A stretch of DNA of 64,000 nucleotides from an uncultured delta proteobacterium. Lineage in GTDB: Bacteria > Myxococcota_A > Polyangia > Polyangiales > Houyiibacteriaceae. Positions 21,139-49,389 of the stretch are shown in pieces. The DNA is taken from positions 29,357 to 93,356 of the forward strand of contig CAVPIE010000008.1 in assembly GCA_963704865.1 (NCBI GenBank), written 5' to 3'. The position numbers and the translations under genes were made by a program. Under the pieces are notes generated by a model. It was given only the letters and a program-made list of their open reading frames with translations, ran no database searches and had not been told where the DNA came from. Position 1 is the first letter of the stretch; the number at the start of each line of letters is the position of its first letter.

Positions 21139-21963
21139 CTAGAAGGTCCCGCCGAATGACAGGCCGGCGCCCTCCCTAGACACCAACGGGGCCAGCCTCC
21201 AGCTGAATTCGTGACCCGGCATCGGCATCTTGCGGCTGTTGTAGTCCTCCCAGGCCTTTTCGCTCGGGGTCTTGCGAAACGACGTCCCGAAGGTGGCGAG
21301 GCCTACGGCGAAGAAGACCGAGCCGATGACGTAGCCCGACGCCCTGTCCGCGCGGCCCGCGCTGTCGGGAATTGGCGTGAATGCGACGACGAGAACTCCG
21401 GCCAACGCATGGGTGAGCGCGACCCAGCGCACCAAAAGGCGCTCGCCTCGGCGGTGCTCCTGAGACGCCTGAAGCTCGCCCTCGAAGTGTGCGAGCTCGA
21501 CCTTGGTAATGCCTTCTTTGCGCGCTTTCTGCCAGCGCTCGAGACGGTGTCGCTCATGGGAGACGCGGACCGCGACGAACACGCCCGTGGTCAGATCGGC
21601 CATGCCGAGCGTCATGAACATGACGCCGAGGCCGCGCGAATATTGAGTCGATGGGGGCTCTTCGAGGAAACGCCAGGCCGACAGGCCGAGCAAGATCGCG
21701 CCCCCGGTAATCCCGGCGGCCGCTGCGTACTTTTTCTCACGGATCGTTTGCTCCGACGATCGCGTGAGAAGCTCGTCGAGGATCTCCGCGTTGTAGGCGA
21801 GGGCGTCGCGGTCGAAGAGGTCGGGCTCTTGTGTGATCACCTCGGCGTCCGCCTCGACGCTTGCGTTTGTGTCTTGGTCTTCGTCCTGCGCGGCGACGGT
21901 CGCTGGCGAAAGCGAGAGCGAAAGCCACGCGAAAGCGGGAATCAAGGCCGAGATGGGTCGCAT
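21139..21963 (-). CDS. Hypothetical exported/membrane protein
   Basis: Signal peptide MRPISALIPAFAWLSLSLSPATVAAQ, an acidic region, about 4 predicted TM segments, and an ending ...LSFGGTF. No recognisable family. Confidence 0.45.
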   Translation of the reverse strand: MRPISALIPAFAWLSLSLSPATVAAQDEDQDTNASVEADAEVITQEPDLFDRDALAYNAEILDELLTRSSEQTIREKKYAAAAGITGGAILLGLSAWRFLEEPPSTQYSRGLGVMFMTLGMADLTTGVFVAVRVSHERHRLERWQKARKEGITKVELAHFEGELQASQEHRRGERLLVRWVALTHALAGVLVVAFTPIPDSAGRADRASGYVIGSVFFAVGLATFGTSFRKTPSEKAWEDYNSRKMPMPGHEFSWRLAPLVSREGAGLSFGGTF

Positions 21964-22006
21964 GAAGGTCGGCCCTGGATAGCAGTGAGCGACTGTCGCC
22001 GCCAAC

Positions 22007-22912: not shown

Positions 22913-24523
22913 ATGAACGACAGTCGAAAGCGAAGTTTCTGGGGCTGGGGCTGGGAGGACAAGTTCCCCGATGCCGCCGCTCGCAAGGCGACAGGCGAGC
23001 ACGCACAGCTGATGCTAGGCTTTGCGCCGGAGCGTTGTGACGAGCCTCCATCGCTCGACGCGATCGAGCTGCGCGCGCCGCGGCTGAGCGTGCCGTCCGC
23101 CCTCGAGGGCGTACTCAGCGACGATCACGAAGCTCGCGTCCGGCATACCTACGGTCGGTCCTACCGCGACATCCTTCGTGGTTTTCGGGCCGACTTCGAT
23201 TCCGCGCCCGACCTCGTTGCGACGCCGCAGACCGAACATGACATCCGCGCCGTGCTCGACTGGGCCTGCGATGCGAACGTCGCCGTGATCCCTTTCGGTG
23301 GCGGGACCAGCGTCGTCGGCGGCGTCGAAGGCGACATCGACGATCGCTACCGTGCGGTGCTGAGCCTCGACCTTGGGCGGCTCGATCGCGTTCTCGACGT
23401 CGAGAAGAGCTCGATGTCGGCTCGCATTGAGGCCGGTGCGACCGGGCCGGCGTTGGAATCGCAGCTTGCAGAGCACGGCCTGACGCTCCGCCACTTCCCG
23501 CAGTCGTTCGAGTTCTCTACGCTTGGTGGTTGGCTTGCCACGCGGGCCGGCGGCCACTTCGCCACCGTGTACACGCACATCGACGACCTCGTACAGTCGA
23601 TGCGAGCCGTCACGCCGAGCGGTCTTTGGGAGTCGCGTCGACTGCCCGGTTCGGGCGCAGGCCCAAGCCCGGACCGCCTCATGCTCGGCTCCGAGGGGAT
23701 CTTTGGCGTCATCACCGAAGCGTGGATGCGGGTGCGGCCTCGCCCGGAGTATCGCGGAACTGCGACGGTGCACTTCAGCGACTACGGGCGCGCGGTCGAG
23801 GCGGTGAGGGTGCTCTCGCAGTCGGGGCTCTATCCGAGCAACTGCCGGCTGCTCGACAAGCGTGAGGCGGCGCTCAACGCCGTCACCCTGGATGGGACGC
23901 ACGTTTTTTTTGTGGCCTTCGAATCGGCCGATCATCCCATTCACGCCTGGATGGATCGGGCGCTCGAGCTGGTCGCCGATCACGGCGGCACCTGCCCGAA
24001 GGGGCCTGCCTATCGGGAAGGGAGCGTGCCAAGTGGCGGCAGCGGTGGCGCCGGGGTCTGGCGGGACGCATTCATCGACGCGCCGTATTTGCTTAACACC
24101 ATGGCGAGCATGGGCGTCGTCGCAGACACGTTCGAGACCGCGTGCACCTGGGACCAATTCGAGCGGCTCCACGGCGGCGTCGTTCGTGAGGTGCGCCGGG
24201 CAATGAAAGATGCGTGCGGGCAGGGCTTCATCAGCTGCCGGTTCACGCATGTCTATCCGGACGGTCCGGCGCCGTACTTCACCTTCATCGCGCCCGGGCG
24301 GTACGGCGTCGAGGCCGAGCAGTGGATGGCGATCAAGAAGGCAGCGTCGGACGCGGTGATCGACTATGGCGGGACCATCACACACCACCATGCGGTCGGC
24401 CGAGTGCATCGGCCCTGGTACGAGAAGCAGCGCCCGTCGCAGCTCGGCGACGTCCTGCGCGCGGTCAAAGGCGTGCTCGACCCCTCCACCGTGATGAACC
24501 CGGGTGTGTTGGTGGAGGTCTAA
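22913..24523 (+). CDS. FAD-linked oxidase, alkyldihydroxyacetonephosphate synthase (AGPS)-like
   Basis: N-terminal FWGWGWEDKFPD motif, PCMH-type FAD-binding segment (...VIPFGGGTSVVGG...), and a C-terminal FAD-oxidase_C-like region ...THHHAVGRVHRPWY. Confidence 0.7.
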   Translation: MNDSRKRSFWGWGWEDKFPDAAARKATGEHAQLMLGFAPERCDEPPSLDAIELRAPRLSVPSALEGVLSDDHEARVRHTYGRSYRDILRGFRADFDSAPDLVATPQTEHDIRAVLDWACDANVAVIPFGGGTSVVGGVEGDIDDRYRAVLSLDLGRLDRVLDVEKSSMSARIEAGATGPALESQLAEHGLTLRHFPQSFEFSTLGGWLATRAGGHFATVYTHIDDLVQSMRAVTPSGLWESRRLPGSGAGPSPDRLMLGSEGIFGVITEAWMRVRPRPEYRGTATVHFSDYGRAVEAVRVLSQSGLYPSNCRLLDKREAALNAVTLDGTHVFFVAFESADHPIHAWMDRALELVADHGGTCPKGPAYREGSVPSGGSGGAGVWRDAFIDAPYLLNTMASMGVVADTFETACTWDQFERLHGGVVREVRRAMKDACGQGFISCRFTHVYPDGPAPYFTFIAPGRYGVEAEQWMAIKKAASDAVIDYGGTITHHHAVGRVHRPWYEKQRPSQLGDVLRAVKGVLDPSTVMNPGVLVEV

Positions 24524-24532
24524 AACCGACGC

Positions 24533-25645
24533 CTAGCGTTCGTTTGCGGCGCGTAGCGCTTCGTCTTTTTGCACCCGGAAGACGACGCCGATGTCGTCCC
24601 CGCTGAGCTTCCACCTGCTCGAGTCACGGCGCCGATTCGGTCCGAATGAATAGATGAAGACCTTGTCACGCGTGTCGTTGCAGCTGGTGCGCACCCAGTA
24701 CGCGGTGCTCCAGGGATCGACGAAAAACTCAGCGCGCTCCGTGGGTAGACCCTGCTGCGTGAGTCGCCTGAAACGGCCGTCGTTCAGCGTATCGCTCTCG
24801 AATAGCTTCGAAATGCTGCTTAGGCGGTCGTGTCTGCCGCACAGGTCTCGCTCCTCCTCGATCAGCGCCCGAAGATCGGGCTCGAGTTCCTGGATCTCGG
24901 TTCGGGCGACCTCGACGACCACCGGATCGGCGGCGAGCTGACCCCGTGACCAGATCGCGCCCCCGAATCCCAAAACCACAACGAGACTCAGAGCCGCAAC
25001 ACAGAAGGTCCACGTGCTCGTCTCGAGGGACTCGTCTCCGAGCGCGCGCAAGCTCGCGATGGAAGCGAAGAGAAACGCGAGTGCCATGCCCGCTTCGACA
25101 AGCTCGCCGGTGTACGGCAACGGGTAGACGACGAGTAGCCCGAGGAGCGCCCCGAAAATCGGTGCGAGACCGAGCGGAGGTGCCGTGATGCCGAGCGTGC
25201 GGAGCGCTTTGTAGGTCGAAGGGACCCGTTCGAGGATCGGAAGAACAAGCCCGTAGCCGATGAGGATCGCGCCGAGGATCTGTTGTCGAAGGCTGGTTGG
25301 AAGGATGTTGTGGAGGTTGAGCTCTAGCTGGTAGTTGTTCTCTAGAAAGTATCGCGGTGGGCTATAGCCGAACAGCCTTTGGCCCCACGAGATCTCCTCG
25401 AGGGCGAACAGTACGCAGAAGAATGCGAGGCCTGCGAAAAACCAGGGCAGGGGGCGTTCCCGGCGTCGGCTGACTGCGGCGCGCGCGAAGAACACGCCTG
25501 CGACCAAGAATGCCCAAACGGTGCACCATTCGAGCGGCTGATCCTCCTGGACGTGCACGTAAAACGCGTCTGGGTTCAACGCGCTTAGCGCGCTGAACCC
25601 AGCTATCAGCACAATGAACGAGACGTTTGCAAAAATCTGAGGCAT
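24533..25645 (-). CDS. Polytopic membrane protein with a C-terminal GspG (type II secretion pseudopilin G)-like domain
   Basis: About 7 hydrophobic segments (MPQIFANVSFIVLIAGF..., EEISWGQ motif). Then a soluble tail FFVDPWSTAYWVRTSCNDTRDKVFIYSFGPNRRRDS...LSGDDIGVVF, resembling the GspG signature DPWGxxYxY...(F/Y)D(L/V)xSxGxDG...DI. Confidence 0.5.
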   Translation of the reverse strand: MPQIFANVSFIVLIAGFSALSALNPDAFYVHVQEDQPLEWCTVWAFLVAGVFFARAAVSRRRERPLPWFFAGLAFFCVLFALEEISWGQRLFGYSPPRYFLENNYQLELNLHNILPTSLRQQILGAILIGYGLVLPILERVPSTYKALRTLGITAPPLGLAPIFGALLGLLVVYPLPYTGELVEAGMALAFLFASIASLRALGDESLETSTWTFCVAALSLVVVLGFGGAIWSRGQLAADPVVVEVARTEIQELEPDLRALIEEERDLCGRHDRLSSISKLFESDTLNDGRFRRLTQQGLPTERAEFFVDPWSTAYWVRTSCNDTRDKVFIYSFGPNRRRDSSRWKLSGDDIGVVFRVQKDEALRAANER

Positions 25646-25669
25646 TCGCGCTCGTCCGACCGGTTACAC

Positions 25670-26410
25670 CTACTTCTTCTTCTTCGAGCTGCCGGAGCCG
25701 CCGCCGCTCTCGTCGTCGACCGTCGGATCTGAATCCTGGCCCGCCTTGCTCTTGCCAGGATTACTGGAGTCGACGCCGTCTACGTTGTTGCCGTGCCCGT
25801 TGTTGCTCTTCCCGGAGTCGCCCATGTCCTTGGCGCCGGAGTCACCCTTGTCCTTGGAGCCGGAGTCGCCCTTGTCCTTGGAGCCGGAGTCGCCCATATC
25901 CTTGGCGCTGGAGTCGCCCTTGTCCTTGGAGCCGGAGTCGCCCTTGTCCTTGGAGCCGGAGTCGCCCATATCCTTGGCGCTGGAGTCGCCCTTGTCCTTG
26001 GAGCCGGAGTCGCCCTTGTCCTTGGAGCCGGAGTCGCCCTTGTCCTTGGAGCCGGAGTCGCCCATATCCTTGGCGCTGGAGTCGCCCTTGTCCTTGGAGC
26101 CGGAGTCGCCGTTGTCCTTGGAGCCGGAGTCGCCCTTGTCCTTGGAGCCGGAGTCACCCTTGTCCTTGGAGCCGGAGTCGCCACCGCCCTTGTCGCCACC
26201 GCTGGAGTCGCCGCCGCCGTTGTTGCTGCCGCCGGAGTCGCCGCCATCGTTATCCCATTCGCTCGCCTCAGGGGCGGTGCCCATGACGCGGTTTCCGAGA
26301 TCGTCGGCTAGAAAAAACATAGAAAAAGGACTCGCGCTGGCCTCCACGAGCCCCAAAAGGCCCACCACCGCTGCGAGTCCAAGACCGATTGTCAAACGCG
26401 AGATTTTCAT
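25670..26410 (-). CDS. Secreted low-complexity repeat protein (16 x GDSGSKDK-type octapeptide, C-terminal KKKK)
   Basis: Signal peptide MKISRLTIGLGLAAVVGLLGLVEASA. The chosen frame has GC3-rich codons (GGC GAC TCC GGC TCC AAG GAC AAG). SD AAAGAGGTG lies upstream of ATG 26410. Confidence 0.7.
   Translation of the reverse strand: MKISRLTIGLGLAAVVGLLGLVEASASPFSMFFLADDLGNRVMGTAPEASEWDNDGGDSGGSNNGGGDSSGGDKGGGDSGSKDKGDSGSKDKGDSGSKDNGDSGSKDKGDSSAKDMGDSGSKDKGDSGSKDKGDSGSKDKGDSSAKDMGDSGSKDKGDSGSKDKGDSSAKDMGDSGSKDKGDSGSKDKGDSGAKDMGDSGKSNNGHGNNVDGVDSSNPGKSKAGQDSDPTVDDESGGGSGSSKKKK
25815..26174. repeat. 15 clean 24-bp tandem units, with a partly 72-bp higher-order pattern, inside the repeat-protein gene
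   Basis: The units are ggagtcgcccttgtccttggagcc (S type) and ggagtcgcccatatccttggcgct (M type). Order read from the sequence: M' S S M S S M S S S M S S' S S. Confidence 0.9.
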
Positions 26411-26433
26411 AGTCAGCACCTCTTTCAAATTCC

Positions 26434-26461
26434 AGTATAAGAAAAAATTTACAGTCCTCAA
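26434..26461 (-). promoter_or_regulatory. Candidate sigma70-type promoter for the repeat-protein gene
   Basis: The reverse strand reads TTGAGG, a 16-nt spacer, then TATACT, in a 77-bp AT-rich spacer. It is followed by SD GAGG and the ATG. Confidence 0.35.
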
Positions 26462-26487
26462 GTAGGGTATGTTACCAATATTGCGAT

Positions 26488-26895
26488 TTATCGAGGATTA
26501 CTCGCCCCAATGACATCTTTGAAGGCGTCTCCGTCGATCTCGCCAGAGGCGACACAGTACCAGGAGCGCGGACCCGCATCCTGGATCAGGCGGAAGTTGT
26601 ACCGGCGGCCTTGAAGCTCGGTTGGGGAGATTCGGGTGCCACCTTCGACCCGAAAGCCCAGCGCATCGAAGGTTCCGGCGTACTTGCCTCGGGTGACCAG
26701 GTATTCGCGCTGGGCGGCCGCGAGAGCTCGAAACGTCATGACGGCTTCGGGCCGCTTCGCGCGGGCCACGAATATCTGATAGCGATTGACTCCGACGGTC
26801 GCAAGGACCGAGATGATCACGGTGACGATCATGGCGTCGATCAAGGTGTAACCGGCTCGCCGCTTGCGGCGTGGCGCTCTTTGCGTTCCGTTCAT
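26488..26895 (-). CDS. Prepilin-type N-terminal cleavage/methylation domain protein (type IV pilin / pseudopilin-like)
   Basis: Basic leader [15 protein letters not shown] followed by [21 protein letters not shown] (class III signal peptide pattern with Asp at +5 instead of Glu). It is followed by [22 protein letters not shown], typical of the pilin alpha1-C helix. Confidence 0.7.
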
Positions 26896-28148
26896 TTTCG
26901 CTCCTCTCCGTGGAGGCCTCCATAGACGATGATCTTGTCTTCCCAGTGCTGTGCGACGAGCGCATCTCCTCGGTGAAGGAATCCGTCGCGGGCTCCCCAG
27001 CGCTTCTCTGCCGTCGAGAATACAGTCTCCGCTTCTTCGCGGCGGCGTTCGTCCGAGAGAAGCTCCCAGGACTCCTCCACCTGGGCGAAGAGGACCGGCG
27101 GCGTGGACTCCGACATCGATGCTTCGCGAATGAAGCTCGAGAGGTCCCCAGCGTCGTCGGGACTGATCGCCCGAAGCCCGCTCGAGTTGCCTAGATACTC
27201 GTCAGCGAGAAACAAAAGGCCTGCGAATGCGACCGCCAGACCCACGCCGCGCAACAGCCGTTGTTTTCGCATGGGGTTGGCGACGAATACGATGCTTTTT
27301 CGTCTGGATGGCTTGCGTGTTTTGGGGGGGGCGGTCTCGGGAGCGGCGTTTGGTTGCGGTTCCGCCGGCGCATCCGGCACGACGCTCAGCAGGCCCGTGT
27401 TCCGATCCTCAATCTCTGGGTGCGCCATGCCGACGCTGAGGTGCTCACGGTATTGACTCAGGTCCGCCAGCAGCTCGTCCACAAACTGGTATCGAGCGTC
27501 GGGGTCTCGGCACGTTGCTTTGCGAATGATTCGGACGACGCCCGCGGGGTGGCTCCCCAGCTCTTGGAGCTTCGGGATGTCTCTCGCTTCCCGCGGCGGC
27601 TCCTCACCGGCGACCACGAAGTACAGCAGTCGTCCCAGTGAATAGATGTCGGACCGGGTTTCGAGGACTCGCTCACTCGCCGTTTCTGGCGCGACGAACG
27701 GGCCGCTCCGGGGCGCAATGCGAGGGCCCAACAAGAACGGCTTCAGCTCATCGTCGACCGCGATGTACTGGGGCGACACGGTGCCCACCGGAACCTCGGT
27801 CGCGTGGAAGCGTGCGACGATGTTCGCGACTTCACGAAAATGCCTGAGGCGTTCGTCAAGACGCCACGAGCTCCACGGCAAGTCGCGGAACACACCCTTG
27901 GGTGCCGGCGACGCAAGAAGTACGTAAGGGTCTTCCTTGATGATTCGGATCCCCGACGCTTCGGCGTAGCGCGGGATGTTTTCGAAGTTGACCTTCTGGC
28001 CGTCGGTGGTGACGGCTTGGAGCACAATGACGGCGACTTCACGATCCTCGCGGTCGAGGCCCTCATGCACGACGATGCCGGGCGCACGGAAGATGGGCTT
28101 GCCCACCAGCACACCCGCCACGAAGGCATTGGTTGCAGTTTCTTGCAT
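26892..28148 (-). CDS. Membrane-anchored Hanks-type kinase homologue with degenerate catalytic motifs (predicted pseudokinase)
   Basis: Retains VAPE (APE), [11 protein letters not shown] (subdomain IX) and CRDPDARY (subdomain XI). It has VAVIVL in place of [19 protein letters not shown] in place of HRDxKxxN, and no DFG. One TM segment ([17 protein letters not shown]) is followed by a roughly 110-aa C-terminal domain. Its stop overlaps the pilin-like start (ATGA). Confidence 0.6.
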
Positions 28149-28258
28149 GTTTTACAAAATAAGTGATTAAATACAGCTATGCCACATCTTAACGAACGGA
28201 AGTTGAAACTTTGAGAGGACTGTAACTCCGGGGCGAAGGCGTCGTATCCTCCGCGGGC

Positions 28259-29623
28259 ATGCGGATCGTCATCGTCGGAAACGGCGTCGCGGGGATGGAG
28301 GCGGCCCTCGCGGTGCGTGAGCGGGAGCCGAGTTGGGAGATCAGCCTGATCTCCGAAGAGAGCGACCACTTCTTCTCGCGGACGGCGCTGATGTGGGTGT
28401 TCAGCGGACAGATGAGCCATCGGGACATCGAACCCCTGGAGCGCGATGCCTATGCAAGGCTTGGATTTCGGAGGGTGCGGGCTCGGGCCAGGGGCATCGA
28501 CACCGCGAAGCAGCTCGTCCTATTGGCGGGCGGGCTGGAGCCGGTTCCCTACGACCGCCTCTTAATTGCATCGGGATCCCGTCCACGCACCGGACCCTGG
28601 CCCGGGGCGGACTCGCGCGGCGTCGGCTATTTCGTCACCTTGCAGGACCTGGCCTGGTACGAGGCCGAGGTCCATGGCGGTAGCTCTCGGGCAGGCGGGC
28701 CTCCGAGGGCCGACGCGCACCTCCGGGCGAGCGCGAGTGATTCGCCGTACCGGTTCCGCGAAGTCGCGGCGGAGCGACGAGGCCAGTTGGCCCGACAACC
28801 GGCGATCATCGGCGGGGGTCTCATCGGGATCGAGGCTGTCGAGGTCGCGGTGGCGGCAGGGCTCCGGCCCCGGTTCTTCATCCGCGAGGAATGGTTCTGG
28901 CCGATCGCGCTGGACCCCCGCGAATCGGAGTGGATCGCCGACCGGATGAGCCATCATGGCGTCGACGTGCATTTGGAGCACGAGGTGGAACGAATCGAGG
29001 CGGACTCGGATGGAAACGTGGCCGCGGTGCGAACCAACGAGGGGCGCTACGAGGCTGACTGCGTCGTGATCGCGATCGGCGTGGTGCCCAACACGTCCTG
29101 GTTGGCCGGCGGCACGATCGCGCTGGACGAGCGCGGTGGCATCGTCGTCGACGAATCCTTGAAGACGAGCGCCGCGAACGTATTCGCCGCGGGCGACTGT
29201 GCGTCGGTGCGTTGGTTCGACGGAACGCGGCGCCCCGAGCAGCTCTGGTACACCGCGCGCGATCAGGGCCGTGTCGCCGGGCGACGGCTCCTCGGCGATT
29301 CGCCGCGTTATGAAAGGGGCGCCTGGTACAACTCGGCCAAGCTGATGGACATCGAGTACACGACCGCAGGGCTGGTGAATTGGAACCTCGACGGCGAAAA
29401 AAGCTGGTTTTTCGAGGAGCACGGCAAGGTGCGAAGCACGACGCGGGTGGTTGTCCAAGAGGACCGCGTCGTCGGTTTCAACATGCTGGGCCGGCGATGG
29501 GATCACCGCGTGCTCATCCGGTGGATTGAAGAACAGCGAAGCCTCGACTGGGTTGTCGCTCACCTAAACGATGCAGCGTTCGACACCGAGCTCGTTCCGC
29601 CGCTACGCATTTTGGGAGCATGA
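28259..29623 (+). CDS. FAD/NAD(P)-dependent pyridine nucleotide-disulfide-family oxidoreductase
   Basis: MRIVIVGNGVAGMEAA dinucleotide fold, a second GGGLIGIEA fold, and AAGDCA near the C-terminal FAD motif. Confidence 0.8.
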   Translation: MRIVIVGNGVAGMEAALAVREREPSWEISLISEESDHFFSRTALMWVFSGQMSHRDIEPLERDAYARLGFRRVRARARGIDTAKQLVLLAGGLEPVPYDRLLIASGSRPRTGPWPGADSRGVGYFVTLQDLAWYEAEVHGGSSRAGGPPRADAHLRASASDSPYRFREVAAERRGQLARQPAIIGGGLIGIEAVEVAVAAGLRPRFFIREEWFWPIALDPRESEWIADRMSHHGVDVHLEHEVERIEADSDGNVAAVRTNEGRYEADCVVIAIGVVPNTSWLAGGTIALDERGGIVVDESLKTSAANVFAAGDCASVRWFDGTRRPEQLWYTARDQGRVAGRRLLGDSPRYERGAWYNSAKLMDIEYTTAGLVNWNLDGEKSWFFEEHGKVRSTTRVVVQEDRVVGFNMLGRRWDHRVLIRWIEEQRSLDWVVAHLNDAAFDTELVPPLRILGA

Positions 29624-30758: not shown

Positions 30759-31271
30759 TCATTCAAACGCGCGGCGCCACGCGGTGAAGACCTCGACCGA
30801 GAAGAGCACAAAACGGATTTCGTCCAAGGCCCAGGTTTGCTCGCGCACGACCGCGGCTGAAACGGCGGCCGCGTCCTCGACCGGGTAGCCATAGACACCG
30901 CAAGAGATGGCGGGAAACGCAATCGATTTGAGCTCGTGTGCGACGGCCAATTCCAACGACGAACGAAATGCCGAGGCCAGGAGCCCGGCGTCCGCAGAAT
31001 GTCCTCGGTAGACCGGACCGACCGTGTGAATCACGTATCGCGCCGGGAGCTCGAAGCCGGGTGTGATTCGGGCCTCACCGGTCGGACAGCGAACCCCCGG
31101 TTGAACCTCGGGAATCGCGCGGCAGGCTTCGAGAAGGGCGGGGCCCGCCGCCTGATGGATTGCCCCATCGACACCACCGCCGCCGAGCATCCATTCGTTG
31201 GCGGCGTTCACGATCGAATCGACGGCTTGTTGGGTTAGATCACCCCGTAGGATGTGTACCCGGGGAGTCAT
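30759..31271 (-). CDS. Macro domain protein (O-acetyl-ADP-ribose deacetylase, YmdB-like)
   Basis: RGDLTQQAVDSIVNAANEWMLGGGGVDGAIHQAAG and SIAFPAISCGVYGYP macrodomain motifs. Confidence 0.85.
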   Translation of the reverse strand: MTPRVHILRGDLTQQAVDSIVNAANEWMLGGGGVDGAIHQAAGPALLEACRAIPEVQPGVRCPTGEARITPGFELPARYVIHTVGPVYRGHSADAGLLASAFRSSLELAVAHELKSIAFPAISCGVYGYPVEDAAAVSAAVVREQTWALDEIRFVLFSVEVFTAWRRAFE

Positions 31272-31738
31272 GGAGAACCGTCCTCCGCGCGCACCGAGGG
31301 GGCCGGCCGGCCCATCAGCTTTTCAAAGGCTGCAGGTCCGAGGGCCTGGGCCATCAGCCGGTCCAGGCGCATTTCGACGGCCTCTTTTTCATCGGGGGAG
31401 TCATAAGCGAAGGCGATTCCCATGCCCGCGGGACGATCGGCCCGCGACTGCGCGACCTCCACGACCCATCGGACGACCCCCCCCAGCACGATGCCCTCTT
31501 CGAGCTGAGGCGCCTGGATCGTGAAGGAGAGCACAGTTCCGACCGGAAGGGGGCGATCGGTGCGAATGAAGGTGCCACCTTGACTGATGTTGTGGGTGTA
31601 GTCCGAGAGGAGCGCGTTCAACCGCTCGTATTCCACGGTCAATTCGAGCGGGGCTCGACCCGATTCCCGACGCTCTCGACCTCCCTCGGACATGCCCGGG
31701 CGGAGGTTAGGGGGCCTCGTGGCTCGCGGCAACAACAC
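31268..31738 (-). CDS. PilZ domain protein (Myxococcales TIGR02266-like)
   Basis: RRESGRAPLELTVEY...DYTHNISQGGTFIRTDRPLPVGTVLSF carries the RxxxR...D/NxSxxG PilZ signature. An alternative ATG lies at 31693. The stop overlaps the macrodomain start by 4 nt. Confidence 0.7.
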   Translation of the reverse strand: MLLPRATRPPNLRPGMSEGGRERRESGRAPLELTVEYERLNALLSDYTHNISQGGTFIRTDRPLPVGTVLSFTIQAPQLEEGIVLGGVVRWVVEVAQSRADRPAGMGIAFAYDSPDEKEAVEMRLDRLMAQALGPAAFEKLMGRPAPSVRAEDGSP

Positions 31739-34172: not shown

Positions 34173-34422
34173 GGGGCGCGGAAAAATTCGGCACGGGGCT
34201 GCGTCGAACGGCTCGCGCTGCCGCGGGTGTTGAGGGGGCGGGGTGTTGGGTTGCGTGGGTGGTTTGGTTTAATTTACACCGCCCGCCCACCCCCACCCGT
34301 AATCCTCCCTGGCGCGGCATTCGCTTCGCTTTGCCTTGGCGGCGCGTTGCGCCGGGCTTCGCCCTGCGGGCTCGCGCTGCCGCCTGCCGTTTGGGAACGT
34401 TGTTGTTCCTATCTCCGTGTGG
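34173..34422. repeat. Copy C of the intergenic repeat family (between the S1-like gene and tRNA-Val)
   Basis: Starts 5 nt after the S1-gene stop. Collinear with copy B. The core 34217-34384 is the reverse complement of 6784-6949. Confidence 0.85.
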
Positions 34423-34529
34423 AGGGGTGCGTCGCGAGCTGTTCTTCGATCGTCGGGTCAACCGTGTTGGGCCATCGGTCGGCTTGTCGCTTGGCTTGTC
34501 GTCGTTTAGGCTCCGCGCCGTTCGGAAAT

Positions 34530-34604
34530 GGGCGATTAACTCAGGGGTAGAGTGGTTTCTTCACACGGAACAAGTCGCTGGTTCAAATCCAGCATCGCCC
34601 ACCA
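34530..34604 (+). tRNA. tRNA-Val (anticodon CAC), CCA encoded
   Basis: Manual cloverleaf. Acceptor GGGCGAT/ATCGCCC is 7/7 paired. D stem ACTC/GAGT with a GG-containing loop. Anticodon stem GTTTC/GGAAC and loop TTCACAC. Variable AAGTC. T stem GCTGG/CCAGC with loop TTCAAAT. Discriminator A plus CCA. Confidence 0.9.
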
Positions 34605-34645
34605 AACAATCATGTTTCTTTGAGAGCCAGGCGGAGGAGAAGCCG

Positions 34646-35671
34646 TTGTCTGACCTGTCGACGCTGGTCCAGGGAATCCGAGCCGGGAACATGCGGGCCC
34701 TGGCCAGGGCCTGCCGGCTGATCGACGAGCGGGACCCTTGCGCCTTCGAGCTGCTGAAGCGGATCTTCACCCATGAAGGGCGTGCCTACGTGATCGGCGT
34801 GACTGGCACGCCAGGCGCGGGCAAGAGCACCCTGGTCGATGGCCTGATTCCGCTCTACCGCGAACAGGGCAAACGCGTAGCGGTGCTCGCGGTCGATCCG
34901 ACGAGCCCCTATTCGGGCGGCGCGATCCTCGGCGACCGCATCCGCATGCAGCAGCACTTCACCGACGAAGGCGTGTTCATTCGTTCGATCGCGACGCGGG
35001 GACACCTCGGGGGGCTTTCCCGTTCGACCGGCGACATGCTTCATGTGCTGCACGCATCGACGTTCGACATCGTGATCGTGGAAACCGTGGGTGTCGGGCA
35101 AGACGAGCTCGAGGTGACTCAGCTGGCGGACACGACGCTGGTGGTGATGGCGCCGGGTCTGGGTGACGACATTCAAGCGATCAAGGCTGGCATCCTCGAG
35201 GTGGCGGACGTGTTCGCCGTGAACAAGTCCGACCGCGTGGGTGCGGACGCCACGGTGCAAGACCTTCAGCAGATGCTCTCGCTTCGGCGTGTGCCGACCG
35301 GTGTCAGCAAGATGCAGGGGCACACCGCGGTGTCGACGCTGCGAGTAGCGCCCGAAGCCGCGGCCGGCGAGTGGCTGCCCCCGATCCTCAAGACCGTCGC
35401 CCACCGTCAGGAAGGGCTGGCCGACTTGGTCGATGCGTTCTCGAAGCACCGCGAGTTCCTCACGACAACCGAGGCTGGTAAGGCGATTCAGGCGCAGCGG
35501 CAGGTCGCGGAGTTTCGTGCGATCCTGTACCAGGCGCTGATCGACGCCGTCGACGCGCGCTTTGCCGAGCAGGTCAGCGAGAAGCTACGCGACATCGTCG
35601 ATAGTAGGGCCGATCCCTACTCGAGCGCCGAGTCGCTGGTTCGGGGCGCCGTCGGCGAGCCCAAGACGTAG
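34646..35671 (+). CDS. meaB: Methylmalonyl-CoA mutase-associated GTPase MeaB (ArgK/LAO-AO transport ATPase family)
   Basis: GVTGTPGAGKSTLVDGL P-loop, LAVDPTSPYSGGAILGDRIRM and VETVGVGQDE motifs. TTG start at 34646 is preceded by GGAGGAG. The track ORF (34259..) reads through the tRNA and repeat and is not credible upstream of the tRNA. Confidence 0.85.
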   Translation: MSDLSTLVQGIRAGNMRALARACRLIDERDPCAFELLKRIFTHEGRAYVIGVTGTPGAGKSTLVDGLIPLYREQGKRVAVLAVDPTSPYSGGAILGDRIRMQQHFTDEGVFIRSIATRGHLGGLSRSTGDMLHVLHASTFDIVIVETVGVGQDELEVTQLADTTLVVMAPGLGDDIQAIKAGILEVADVFAVNKSDRVGADATVQDLQQMLSLRRVPTGVSKMQGHTAVSTLRVAPEAAAGEWLPPILKTVAHRQEGLADLVDAFSKHREFLTTTEAGKAIQAQRQVAEFRAILYQALIDAVDARFAEQVSEKLRDIVDSRADPYSSAESLVRGAVGEPKT

Positions 35672-47391: not shown

Positions 47392-49389
47392 TCAGACCCA
47401 CTGGACGGCGCCAAGACTGAGTAGAATCGAAGCGACGCGGTAACCGCGCTGTGGGTCACTGTTGCCCGGCTGCTGAGTGACGAATTGCGCCAGCCGCTCG
47501 ATGCTCTGTGGCTCCTCGCAGAGCCTCAGCGCGGCGCGAAGGTCGTCGGGGAGGGCCGCGGTGGCGACTCCGGTGTCGATTCGTTCGGGTTGGGCGACCC
47601 GATCCTGTCCGCGCTCCAAGATGAGCTTGGTCTCCAAGCCGGCGGCGATGCGGCGTCGCATACCCCGATCGAGGATCTCCCACGCGTCGAGGCGCAGCGG
47701 AAAGCCGCTGCTCGGCGGGTCGACTCCATCGTAGAAGGTCGCGGTGCCCGATTCCCAGCTGAACAAGTCCAGAAGCTTCTCGCGGACCTGCTCGGCGATG
47801 TGCCGAAAGAGCTCCAAGGGCTCGACGAGCGCGAGTGCGACGAGCGTGTCGCCCAGCTTGCCTTCGAAACGGGGCATCACTGCGAGTGCCATGTCGAGCT
47901 CCGTGCGTGTGATGACGCGCTCCTTGACCAGATGCTCGCCCAGAAGCTCCCCGGCGAGATTGCTCGTCACGAATGCTGGAACGCCCTCCTTCGTATAAAC
48001 CTCCTTGCGGACGCCGCCTTGCTCGCAGAGCCAGAGGCCGGTGCGTCGTCCGACCAGCGTGCGGGCAAGCGCTCTGACGAAACCGCCGTCCTCGAAGTTG
48101 ATGCGTAGGTCCGCGGCCGACGAGGCTTGCACGCGCGTCGTGGTCGGCGTCATGCGGGAGACCGGAACGTGGCGGTAGAGGTCGGTGATCGAAGACAGCG
48201 GTTGAAAGTCTCCGCCAGCGACACTGATGTCGTCGCTCCCGTCGACGTGTCCGGTGGCCACCGCTTCGACCACTTTCGCGTAGGCCAGCGGGCCGACGGT
48301 CGCCCCATTCGGCTTTCGAATCGTGTACTCGAGTGGCGTGACGTTCGTCGTGCTCGGGTGCTCGTCGGAAAGCAAGAGCGGCGTGGGCGGCATGGTCGCC
48401 TTGGGGATCGTGTCGGCCGAGGTCTTGCGCAAACGGGATTCGGCGGTGATGGAACCGACCAGGGCGGCGAGCTCCGCGCGCAGCACGTCTTCGGGCCGGC
48501 TCTGCCACGGATCGAGGGCTGCCCAAAATGCGCGCGCCGTGGGTGGACGTTCCGCCGGGCTCGCCGCAAGCGCCTGAAGAATGACGGAGCCGAGCCCTTC
48601 GGGGAGCTGCGGTAAAAATTCGACGAACGGATGGACCTCGGCGTCGCGAATCGCGAGAAGCACCGCAAGCTCGCTTCCACCTGTAAACAAGGGCCGTCGC
48701 ATGAAGAGCTCGGCGGCAATGACGCCGGTCGAAAAGAGATCGGCGCGCTGGTCGACGTCACCACCCGACACCTGCTCCGGGGCGAGATAGCCGAGCTTGC
48801 CGTTGGCGCGCACCGCGGTGTTCGCCTCGAAGGCGTTGACGTCGGAGCGCGCGATGCCGAAGTCGGCGATCTTCACATCGCCGTGGATCGAAATGAGTAC
48901 GTTCGACGGGCTGATGTCGCGATGGACGATGCCGAGCGTGCCGCCTGCGGCGTCGGTTGCCCGGTGCACGGCGTCGAGACCGCTCAAGATCTGGCGTACC
49001 AAGTAGACCACGAGATCATGCTCGAGCTTTCGGCTGTCTCGGGTGAGGCGCCGGTTCAAGCGCCACAGGTCGCAGCCCGGAACGTACTCGAGCGTCAGGT
49101 AGGGCTGTCCCTCGATCTCGCCGTGGCCAAGGACGTGCACCACGTTGGGATGCGTGATGTGACTGGCGAGCCTGGCCTCTTCGGCGAACATCTGCTGCGC
49201 ATTGGTTTCATCGGCGATATGCGGAAGCATTCGTTTCAGGACCACGACCCGCGGTTCGCCCGCCGCCCGCGGCTCGAGGGCACGAAAGACTTCCGCCATC
49301 CCTCCAACTGCAATACGGTCGACCAAGGTGTAGTCGCCCAATGGAGTATTCGGCGGAGGCGCAGGCGGCGGTGACGATGGTCTTGGCAC
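47392..49389 (-). CDS. Serine/threonine protein kinase (Hanks type) with a DUF4388/PATAN-like C-terminal domain
   Basis: GGMAEVF G-loop, VVLKRM, HRDISPSNVLI, DFGIAR and YLAPE motifs. The C-terminus has GLWLCEQGGVRKEVYTKEGVPAFVTSN...LGEHLV, typical of DUF4388. Confidence 0.85.
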   Translation of the reverse strand: MPRPSSPPPAPPPNTPLGDYTLVDRIAVGGMAEVFRALEPRAAGEPRVVVLKRMLPHIADETNAQQMFAEEARLASHITHPNVVHVLGHGEIEGQPYLTLEYVPGCDLWRLNRRLTRDSRKLEHDLVVYLVRQILSGLDAVHRATDAAGGTLGIVHRDISPSNVLISIHGDVKIADFGIARSDVNAFEANTAVRANGKLGYLAPEQVSGGDVDQRADLFSTGVIAAELFMRRPLFTGGSELAVLLAIRDAEVHPFVEFLPQLPEGLGSVILQALAASPAERPPTARAFWAALDPWQSRPEDVLRAELAALVGSITAESRLRKTSADTIPKATMPPTPLLLSDEHPSTTNVTPLEYTIRKPNGATVGPLAYAKVVEAVATGHVDGSDDISVAGGDFQPLSSITDLYRHVPVSRMTPTTTRVQASSAADLRINFEDGGFVRALARTLVGRRTGLWLCEQGGVRKEVYTKEGVPAFVTSNLAGELLGEHLVKERVITRTELDMALAVMPRFEGKLGDTLVALALVEPLELFRHIAEQVREKLLDLFSWESGTATFYDGVDPPSSGFPLRLDAWEILDRGMRRRIAAGLETKLILERGQDRVAQPERIDTGVATAALPDDLRAALRLCEEPQSIERLAQFVTQQPGNSDPQRGYRVASILLSLGAVQWV

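Follow-up and report, generated by a model that had tools for sequence, protein, structure and literature searches.

We analyzed a 64,000-nt stretch of the assembly GCA_963704865.1 (contig CAVPIE010000008.1, positions 29,357 to 93,356 of the forward strand), hereafter referred to as the window, and focused on a cluster of four genes within it, designated G1 to G4. Our best reading is that these genes belong to a cell-envelope module, old and inherited vertically in an uncultured lineage of Polyangiales (the main clade) and organized in two transcription units, in which the predicted membrane protein G4 would handle the secreted repeat protein G3, and in which the putative pseudokinase G1 and the prepilin-like protein G2 would together tether or sense G3. 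We infer this function at a probability of about 0.4. The gene arrangement described in an initial annotation of this DNA was fully present in the sequence, namely four co-directional minus-strand open reading frames (ORFs) at the positions it gave, a 4-bp ATGA overlap joining G1 and G2, gaps of 77 bp (35% GC) between G2 and G3 and of 24 bp between G3 and G4, a convergent neighbor beyond G4, and an AT-rich divergent spacer on the G1 side.

As judged from aligned sequences, G1 is a true pseudokinase under purifying selection. The protein is predicted to consist of a cytoplasmic kinase-like domain (aa ~1-240), a Pro-rich linker, a single transmembrane (TM) helix (aa ~298-320) preceded by a basic stretch, and a periplasmic alpha/beta domain (aa 325-410). 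A bilobal protein-kinase fold was recognized in the AlphaFold2 (AF2) model, for which Foldseek matched the PknB kinase domain (E 3e-6, probability 1.0, ~240-270 columns) along with other kinase domains. The C-lobe was also recognized in Pfam, NCBIfam, and PDB searches; the NCBIfam PknB model matched G1 at 4e-11, and PknB chains from the PDB aligned from APE through subdomain XI. The Pkinase profile search that had been put forward as a check gave a divided result, in that PF00069 did reach G1, in the C-lobe only (E 0.002), but scored 18.1 bits against a cut-off of 31.7. Thirty-six aligned G1 homologues were then compared with an active kinase encoded in the window (47392-49389), and the beta-3 Lys, the HRD Asp/Asn, and the DFG Asp of active Hanks kinases were all found to be missing from G1. 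VAVIVLQ stands in place of VAxK, with I41 and Q44 being invariant; the HRD region is replaced by the segment RFHAxxVPVGT-SP, with VGT-SP-Y where HRDxKxxN is expected; and (F/L)LG is found in place of DFG, followed by a short activation segment of ~11 residues. APE, subdomain IX (DIYSLG), and the subdomain XI Arg are retained. These replacements were invariant in the 36 homologues, and were also kept in a 46%-identical protein from the distant contig L135, which was found by a metagenome scan with the G4 alignment. Careful alignment of the 36 homologues did not restore the catalytic residues, in agreement with the earlier description of a membrane-anchored Hanks-kinase homologue that lacks the catalytic Lys, the HRD Asp, and DFG and keeps APE and subdomains IX and XI. 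Given that the replacements are invariant and that the ratio of nonsynonymous to synonymous substitution rates (dN/dS) against close relatives is 0.11-0.17, G1 is a maintained protein rather than a decaying gene. The periplasmic domain (the C-terminal 90 residues) was predicted with confidence as an alpha/beta fold (predicted local distance difference test [pLDDT] 80-92), and searches returned no PDB or Pfam relative for it. The comparator kinase, on the minus strand of the window, is an intact Hanks-type kinase in which K52, HRD, DFG, and APE are all present, and is fused to a DUF4388 domain.

By its profile matches, G2 is a type IV prepilin-like protein whose closest match is Myxococcus PilA. 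The G2 family profile matched M. xanthus PilA (PDB 8tj2) at E 1.6e-11, and NCBIfam searches returned PilA_Myxo (8e-13) and GspG (1.9e-5). Pfam N_methyl (PF07963) came just under its cut-off for the window protein (E 3.5e-4, 20.5 bits versus 21.2), and the L135 orthologue passed this threshold at 26.2 bits. Because PilA F1, the first mature residue, aligns to Y16, cleavage of G2 is predicted between G15 and Y16. The protein has a leader ending in Gly(-1) and a hydrophobic, pilin-homologous alpha-1 helix. Position +5, occupied by Glu in prepilins, is an invariant Asp in 13 aligned main-clade sequences; L135 has Glu. The gene always adjoins G1 in related loci, with dN/dS of 0.14-0.24. The pilin profiles, together with the ATGA overlap, bear out the proposal of a prepilin-type protein translationally coupled to the kinase gene.

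G3 encodes, in order, a signal peptide, a ASPFSMFFLADDLGNRV motif, a GDSGSKDK array, a NNGHGNNVDGVDSSNPG...DDE motif, and a KKKK tail. Tandem Repeats Finder called the array as 24-bp units (90% matches, score 623), which encode about 16 GDSGSKDK-type octapeptides, including the variants GDSSAKDM (three copies) and GDSGAKDM (one copy). Within the array, GDSSAKDM recurs after every two or three GDSGSKDK units, a higher-order pattern suggesting that a super-unit of 72-96 bp has expanded recently. A scan of 24400-28400 yielded exactly one sigma-70-like site, TTGAGG-16-TATACT in the G2-G3 spacer, against an average of 0.5 in shuffled sequences. A GTAAnaTACCCCAC block lies upstream of this promoter-like site, and the spacer also contains a GAAAGAGGTG Shine-Dalgarno sequence. 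Thus, the initial annotation was right about the signal-peptide protein, its 16 octapeptides, and its promoter-like site, the last being the sole one in the scanned interval. Across 19 loci, the -35 region, an ACTGTAA element, the -10 region, and the upstream GTAAnaTACCCCAC block were conserved at 80% or more, and the Shine-Dalgarno sequence was also conserved. Given this conservation of the spacer, G3 and, in loci that have it, G4 probably form a transcription unit of their own under tight control. The G1-G2 promoter presumably lies in the divergent spacer beyond G1, in which the same scan called no promoter-like site.

Pfam and NCBIfam searches gave no match for G3. Its family comprises 448 proteins, mostly of 96-195 aa, and the members with a named source all come from Polyangiales or Myxococcales metagenome-assembled genomes (MAGs). 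Across loci, the conserved parts are the signal peptide, ASPFS..(L)xDDLGNxVxGxAP, one or two copies of NNGHGNNxDGVDSSN, an acidic ...DDE segment, and a Lys-rich end. The middle is hypervariable, with GDSGSKDK in the window, GGDSGGG, GNGNGN, or KGSSKGGDKNKS arrays elsewhere, and almost nothing in members of 94-113 aa. The GDSGSKDK repeat, as aligned here, is a lineage-specific rather than a conserved feature of G3, and the highly charged repeat polymer of the initial annotation is not what is conserved in G3: the repeats are hypervariable or absent among relatives, which can be as short as 94-110 aa. Additional G3-family ORFs were seen in some genomes and point to local duplication of G3: a second, shorter paralogue lies just after G4 in L001 (9218-9736) and L022 (9422-9763), and a G3-family ORF starts at 10500 in L038, a locus without G4. 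In MAG contigs, apparent frameshifts interrupt the G3 array (L015 and L042) or G1 (L042 and L051); these probably reflect misassembly of repeats or homopolymers, not true pseudogenes.

Conservation of the cluster was assessed in 44 GTDB species genomes, together with three loci from G1 look-ups and three from G3 look-ups. The G1 family gave 188 matches, the best 120 of which were all at least 66% identical. G1 occurred in the 44 genomes, one of which is a closed 3.5-Mb chromosome; nearly all are labeled as uncultured Myxococcota (under names such as Polyangiales, Myxococcales, or delta proteobacterium), and a few have MAG labels that are only generic or are discordant. Wherever the locus was long enough, G1, G2, and G3 were adjacent and occupied one syntenic position in the core genome, in ~47 uncultured Polyangiales genomes or contigs. 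The gene order in the main clade is PyrRedox (-), then G1 G2 G3, G4 or not, FADox or not, SDR, TM288, and SDR. The invariant unit in the main clade is therefore G1-G2-G3. The 4-bp G1/G2 overlap was kept in close and distant relatives, and the G3-G4 gap was 24-33 bp wherever G4 was present. G4 adjoins G3 in 9 main-clade loci and is absent in more than 20; in the G1 tree, the loci with G4 group in a single subclade, within which losses are nested. The proposed four-gene neighborhood was thus conserved in part, with G1-G2-G3 being invariant and G4 being found in the 9 loci and in L135 but missing from most genomes.

The distant contig L135 carries all four genes in order, with G1, G2, and G4 being 46%, 43%, and 43% identical to those of the window. 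Its G1 keeps the same dead motifs; its G2 has a canonical GFTLIE and a GTGA overlap with G1; and its G3 is a signal-peptide repeat protein with KGSSKGGDKNKS repeats in which the L.DD..N.V motif is kept, followed 26 bp downstream by G4. The neighbors in L135 are complex-I/hydrogenase-like genes, not PyrRedox, FADox, or SDR. The occurrence of the four genes in order amid different neighbors indicates a linkage beyond shared synteny, and the co-conservation of all four genes that had been named as a check was thereby found. A view of G4 solely as a late addition, as drawn from the G1 tree, is weakened by the L135 cluster; the deep branches of the neighbor-joining G4 tree are unreliable.

G4 was modeled by AF2 (pLDDT 85.5, predicted template modeling score 0.76) with seven TM helices, the last of which runs on as a long helix (aa 211-264) and is followed by short helices and a three-stranded sheet. 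The predicted periplasmic C-terminal alpha/beta domain (aa ~239-370) carries DPWxxxYW...YSFGPNRRRDS...GDDIG. Among 54 G4 homologues of 39-82% identity, 46 columns were invariant, including the motifs QED..EW, EEISWGQR, and N..Q.E...HN and, in the tail, DPW...YW, YS.GPN..R.S, and DD. The loops contain 8 Lys and Arg residues on the predicted cytoplasmic side versus 2 on the periplasmic side, from which the N-terminus is predicted to lie inside, with the invariant acidic/His/Trp cluster and the tail facing the periplasm; QED..EW, EEISWGQR, and LHN are placed at predicted periplasmic faces. The family comprises at least 368 clusters at 50% identity, without a Pfam or NCBIfam model. G4 had no match in Pfam, NCBIfam, PADLOC, or the PDB, and the best whole-chain Foldseek match was a ZIP transporter (E 0.4), with no pilin among the top 50.

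The claim that the G4 C-terminus carries the GspG signature was reduced to a resemblance of motifs. The tail alone matched nothing in Pfam or the PDB, and a 40-sequence G4 family profile matched no PDB chain, GspG included, at E up to 10. T2SSG (PF08334) was the most frequent Pfam family among G4 members, yet appeared in 3 of 40 only, with a best E of 0.09, which is not significant. The GspG/T2SSG profile check gave no significant match in Pfam or the PDB; a targeted hhalign comparison with five GspG sequences (E. coli K-12 GspG and four PDB pseudopilins) aligned G4 residues 309-359 to GspG 100-142 at P 0.0013-0.003, with a weak probability of 10-19%. One JGI record names a G4 homologue PulG. 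At the motif level, the resemblance of the tail to GspG is real and its predicted layout is pilin-like; homology is weakly supported. With regard to proteases and sorting enzymes, G4 has EE-x5-R and an adjacent H-N pair rather than the CPBP motifs EExxxR and HxxxN. PF02517 did not appear in the list of the 25 families matched most often by the 54 G4 members at E up to 1, and no Rce1 structure was among the Foldseek matches listed. The NCBIfam models of the sorting enzymes (exosortase/archaeosortase/rhombosortase) gave no match to the window G4 at E<=1 or to its homologue in L082 at E<=10. Two further candidates were rejected: matches to DUF4131 (the ComEC N-terminus) in 13 of 54 members were all below threshold and were taken as hydrophobic-helix noise, and short single-TM versions of the G4 tail (P0388, P0403, and P0406) were not accepted as true pseudopilins, the one that was traced lying on a 562-bp contig and probably being a fragment.

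G4 evolves faster than the neighboring genes (dN/dS 0.21-0.25). The window allele is 65% identical (dS ~1.0) to G4 of L010, L011, and L013, in which the flanking G1, PyrRedox, and FADox are 88-93% identical to those of the window (dS 0.25-0.49); L014 and L059 carry an allele that is 82-85% identical. This divergence of G4 against conserved flanks suggests recombinational allele replacement in a variable G3-G4 segment.

Outside the main clade, 67 of 68 distant loci with only G4-type matches carried neither G1 nor G2. In 16 of 70 G4 loci without G1 and G2, a secreted protein that was rich in Asp and Ser (D/S-rich), or that ended in VPE[LF]D, a TM helix, and RRR, was encoded directly beside G4 (immediately upstream on the same strand in 11, within 500 nt downstream in 5). 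The remaining 238 kb of flank contained a single such ORF, which by our own calculation is a roughly 75-fold enrichment. The enrichment was still strong when related loci were collapsed to ~10 lineages, and the positive loci were scattered over the G4 tree. G4 is thus linked to a repeat or D/S-rich secreted protein rather than to a pilin. Small signal-peptide proteins with DSDSGS or DSDHSDSDSGKKAKK stretches are encoded 20-30 bp upstream of stand-alone G4 in L082 (346-585, ending 21 bp before the G4 homologue), L084 (~510-809), L087 (~245-471), L098 (~610-936), and L104 (3619-3942). All five end in VPE[LF]D, ~20 hydrophobic residues, and RRR, the tripartite form of a sorting signal. These C-termini gave sub-threshold matches only, to the LPXTG, GPS-, MYXO-, VPDSG-, and PID-CTERM models, and apparently represent a C-terminal sorting-signal type of their own. 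One G4-partner tail matched the ClfA/ClfB/Sdr (staphylococcal SD-repeat) models through its D/S-rich region. The L.DD..N.V motif of G3 was absent from the partners of stand-alone G4. Two other kinds of neighbor were also seen. In L099 (800-1711) and L106 (908-1819), the protein upstream of the G4 homologue has a MYXO-CTERM-like tail (GC..., a hydrophobic helix, and RRR), and on the opposite side of G4 there is a convergent D/S-rich ORF. In L100 (3436-3699), L102 (3436-3699), and L110 (2806-3066), an ORF for a Gly-rich peptide of 86-87 aa ends ~250-300 bp upstream of stand-alone G4; with its double-glycine-leader-like start (..ELS.DEIQLVSGG), this peptide looks like a bacteriocin.

In our best reading, the first transcription unit would comprise G1 and G2, whose translational coupling would probably give equal amounts of two proteins forming an inner-membrane complex, and the second would comprise G3, with G4 where present, driven by the strongly conserved promoter. 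G3 would be a small protein exported by Sec, conserved in its N-terminal motif and hypervariable in its charged, low-complexity middle. The dedicated handler of G3 at the periplasmic face would be G4, acting by processing, anchoring, or hand-off, as sorting enzymes do with an adjacent target gene; this role is suggested by the match to the pattern of a membrane sorting enzyme beside its single target, as in MrtJ/JDVT-CTERM. The G1-G2 pair would bind the conserved N-terminal motif of G3 in the periplasm, which is suggested by the presence of this motif wherever G1 and G2 are found and its absence from the partners of stand-alone G4. The pair would then serve as a non-catalytic scaffold or receptor, in the manner of EssB/YukC in the type VIIb secretion system (T7SSb), and the pilus or secretion motor and the prepilin peptidase would be supplied from elsewhere in the genome. 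A bolder version, which we regard as unlikely, is that the G4 family represents a new class of periplasm-facing membrane enzyme with a pseudopilin-like domain that would process or sort adjacent D/S-rich proteins, wired in this lineage to a pseudokinase-pilin receptor or scaffold, with display or signaling through a type II secretion system (T2SS) or type IV pilus (T4P) route.

Several points weigh against our best reading. G4 is missing from the locus in most main-clade genomes, and in one genome without it there, the contig carries a G4 homologue of 43% identity at a distance of ~45 kb. Because the whole 15-kb region is syntenic in the main clade, adjacency there is weak evidence for function, and the support for a four-gene unit across contexts comes from a single contig, L135. 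The G3 of the window ends in ...VDDESGGGSGSSKKKK, without a hydrophobic C-terminal helix and so without the tripartite form, and is therefore not a sorting-signal substrate of the classical type. None of the known families of proteases, sortases, or transferases is matched by G4, whose likeness to GspG is marginal. The kinase part of the G1 model is of low confidence (mean pLDDT 54.8), so that its Foldseek match to the kinase fold is supportive and not decisive. Finally, pilus, T2SS, and peptidase genes are not found nearby: as had been stated earlier, there is no pilus ATPase, platform, secretin, or prepilin peptidase, here among the 30 large window ORFs scanned.

The alternative that survives best, and that we consider somewhat unlikely, is that the cluster consists of two independent pairs with a merely historical adjacency, G3-G4 being a repeat protein with its processing or sorting factor, and G1-G2 being, for example, a T4P or T2SS regulator with a minor pilin. 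The 67 of 68 distant loci in which G4 lacks G1 and G2, with D/S-rich proteins as its partners there, would fit this explanation, as would the coming and going of G4 at the locus, the strongly conserved promoter that G3 has of its own, and the proximity of G2 to the major T4P pilin of Myxococcus. However, G3 was never parted from G1-G2 in the ~47 loci, even where G4 was missing, and L135 holds all four genes in a new context, with the L.DD..N.V motif that is kept in its G3 and absent from the partners of stand-alone G4.

It is rather improbable that the cluster is no module at all, its genes being unrelated, specific to the lineage, and kept together only by the synteny of a stable core region. 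Such a region is indicated by the housekeeping flanks (BamA, LysRS, HisRS, S1, MeaB, and RF), by the ordinary GC content overall and at third codon positions (GC3), and by the order from PyrRedox through the second SDR, which is kept clade-wide. Synteny of this kind does not account for the 4-bp G1/G2 overlap in both close and distant relatives, the 24-33-bp gap wherever G4 follows G3, the recurrence of the four-gene order in L135 with unrelated flanks, or the family-wide association of G4 with D/S-rich proteins.

It is more improbable still that G4 is a membrane glycosyl- or phospho-transferase that modifies Ser residues of G3, and perhaps of G2, in the periplasm, in the way that accessory genes for pilin O-glycosylation lie downstream of pilin genes. 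Staphylococcal SD repeats are glycosylation substrates, and GT-C enzymes have an acidic motif in the first periplasmic loop. The Ser/Asp-rich nature of the G4 partners, one tail of which matches the SD-repeat models, the invariant QED motif in the first periplasmic loop of G4, and the position of G4 downstream of a pilin gene are consistent with these features. On the other hand, no transferase family or structure, GT-C and Wzy_C included, showed similarity to G4, which has only 7 TM helices, and the minimal G3 proteins hold few Ser residues. An anti-phage defense or other kinase-based conflict system, suggested by matches of G1 to the PD-T4-6, PglW, MAD6, and Stk2 kinases in PADLOC and NCBIfam, was rejected and is effectively refuted, since these matches extend over no more than the C-lobe common to kinases (residues ~150-290), no catalytic residue is left in G1, PADLOC returned nothing for G2, G3, or G4, and the locus is a syntenic, vertically inherited part of the core genome.

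The coordinates of the cluster and its elements are given in Table 1.

Table 1. Features of the G1-G4 cluster, in window coordinates.
Feature	Position	Strand	Description
G1	26892-28148	(-)	418 aa, putative bitopic pseudokinase
G2	26488-26895	(-)	135 aa, type IV prepilin-like protein
G3	25670-26410	(-)	246 aa from the MKISRL start; mechanical ORF 25670-26461
G4	24533-25645	(-)	370 aa, predicted 7-TM membrane protein
Promoter-like site TTGAGG-16-TATACT	26461-26434	(-)	In the G2-G3 spacer
Tandem 24-bp array in G3	25812-26182	(-)	15.5 copies, GDSGSKDK octapeptides
Divergent AT-rich spacer G1/Pyr_redox_2	28149-28258	n/a	110 bp, 46% GC

The convergent neighbor beyond G4 is an FAD-linked oxidase gene (22913-24523, +), and a divergent Pyr_redox_2 gene follows the spacer on the G1 side, an arrangement kept in all main-clade loci. 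The remark that the cluster is less GC-rich than its surroundings was correct as to the figure (61.8% versus 63.3% for the window), but the difference is marginal and within the range of the neighboring genes, some of which are lower still; both GC and GC3 of the cluster are ordinary. The window is ordinary core genome, encoding BamA, LysRS, HisRS, ribosomal protein S1, MeaB, RF, PurA, SerA, and cytochrome oxidase. A foreign island was ruled out by the ordinary GC and GC3, the housekeeping flanks, and the syntenic locus that follows the G1 tree. A gene for a PilZ-domain protein (cyclic di-GMP receptor type; 31268-31738, -) lies four genes from the cluster, and it keeps this position in the related loci with inspected gene tables (L001, L008, L009, L055, and L056). 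A conserved 288-aa membrane protein without a Pfam match (21139-22005, -) is encoded between two short-chain dehydrogenase genes and is syntenic clade-wide. Rfam found one tRNA only in the window, tRNA-Val(CAC) (34530-34604, +), which lies within the mechanical ORF 34259-35671; because the MeaB match begins at residue 148 of this ORF, the real MeaB start lies downstream of the tRNA.

If our best reading is true, the cluster would add a Gram-negative example to the short list of bacterial Ser/Thr pseudokinases for which a partner can be defined, in this case with translational coupling to a pilin. G1, G3, and G4 each define a protein family that lacked annotation, and the recurrent pairing of G4 with D/S-rich proteins, some with sorting-signal-like tails, leads to the concrete hypothesis of a new protein-handling step in the diderm envelope. 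Given that the hosts are uncultured, what the cluster offers for now is annotation and the framing of hypotheses, not an established mechanism.

The combination of G1-G4 is not described in Pfam, NCBIfam, PADLOC, or the literature searched, where no pseudokinase-pilin system was found; the initial annotation had likewise not recognized it as a described system. Bitopic pseudokinase scaffolds are known in EssB/YukC of the T7SSb and in MviN (PMC12599244). The EssB/YukC, MviN/ActPs3, and GLW families resemble G1 in having a cytoplasmic N-terminal kinase fold, one TM helix, and an extracytoplasmic C-terminal domain (PMC12599244), and in pseudokinases of the EssB/YukC type, as in G1, degradation affects all catalytic motifs together with the Gly-rich loop and the greater part of the activation loop, and the gene stands beside envelope or secretion partners (PMC12599244). 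Unlike these proteins, G1 is matched by no YukC or other pseudokinase-family profile or structure, and its nearest structures are active PknB-type kinases. Its host is a diderm myxobacterium, and its partners are a pilin and a repeat protein rather than T7SS components; no T7SS genes were found among the window ORFs scanned. By analogy, G1 may work like EssB/YukC, but it falls outside that family. Type IVa pilins such as M. xanthus PilA (8tj2) share with G2 a class III-type leader, Gly(-1), a hydrophobic alpha-1, and homology over PilA residues 1-73. Main-clade G2 differs from them in Asp(+5) and Tyr(+1), in a mature length of only ~120 aa without a disulphide-bonded D-region, and in a gene that lies outside any pilus operon and is translationally coupled to a pseudokinase gene.

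GspG/PulG (PF08334, TIGR01710) and the G4 tail have DPWxxxY, (Y/L)S(F/A)GP(N/D), and (G/E)DDI in common, in the order and spacing of E. coli GspG 100-142, and the tail shares with them a predicted layout in which a long helix leads into a periplasmic three-stranded sheet. In contrast to these pseudopilins, the G4 tail has no prepilin leader, forms the C-terminal extension of a 7-TM protein, and stays under every sequence-profile threshold. Long D/S-rich low-complexity arrays are found in the staphylococcal Clf/Sdr SD-repeat proteins, in G3, and in several G4 neighbors; the likeness to G3 is compositional only, since G3 has GDSGSKDK rather than (SD)n repeats, no LPXTG anchor, no adhesin domains, and Gram-negative hosts. 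A sorting enzyme and its single target form a two-gene pair in MrtJ with JDVT-CTERM, and MYXO-CTERM cargo uses the T2SS (PMC11980579). Like G4, the enzymes of such pairs (MrtX/MYXO-CTERM, MrtJ/JDVT-CTERM, and exosortase/PEP-CTERM) are polytopic, have invariant charged residues, and are encoded beside a single small secreted protein (PMC11980579), and the signature motif, TM helix, and Arg cluster of the targets recur in the G4 partners of several lineages (VPE[LF]D...RRR). They differ in that G4 has no detectable similarity to the CPBP, exosortase, rhomboid, or sortase families, that the window G3 lacks the hydrophobic helix, and that cleavage by G4 is only postulated. Thus, the cluster lies outside EssB/YukC, T2SSG, CPBP, and the exosortases, and each of its parts is of a known kind or resembles one (bitopic pseudokinase, type IV pilin, pseudopilin-like domain, and pair of sorting enzyme and target).

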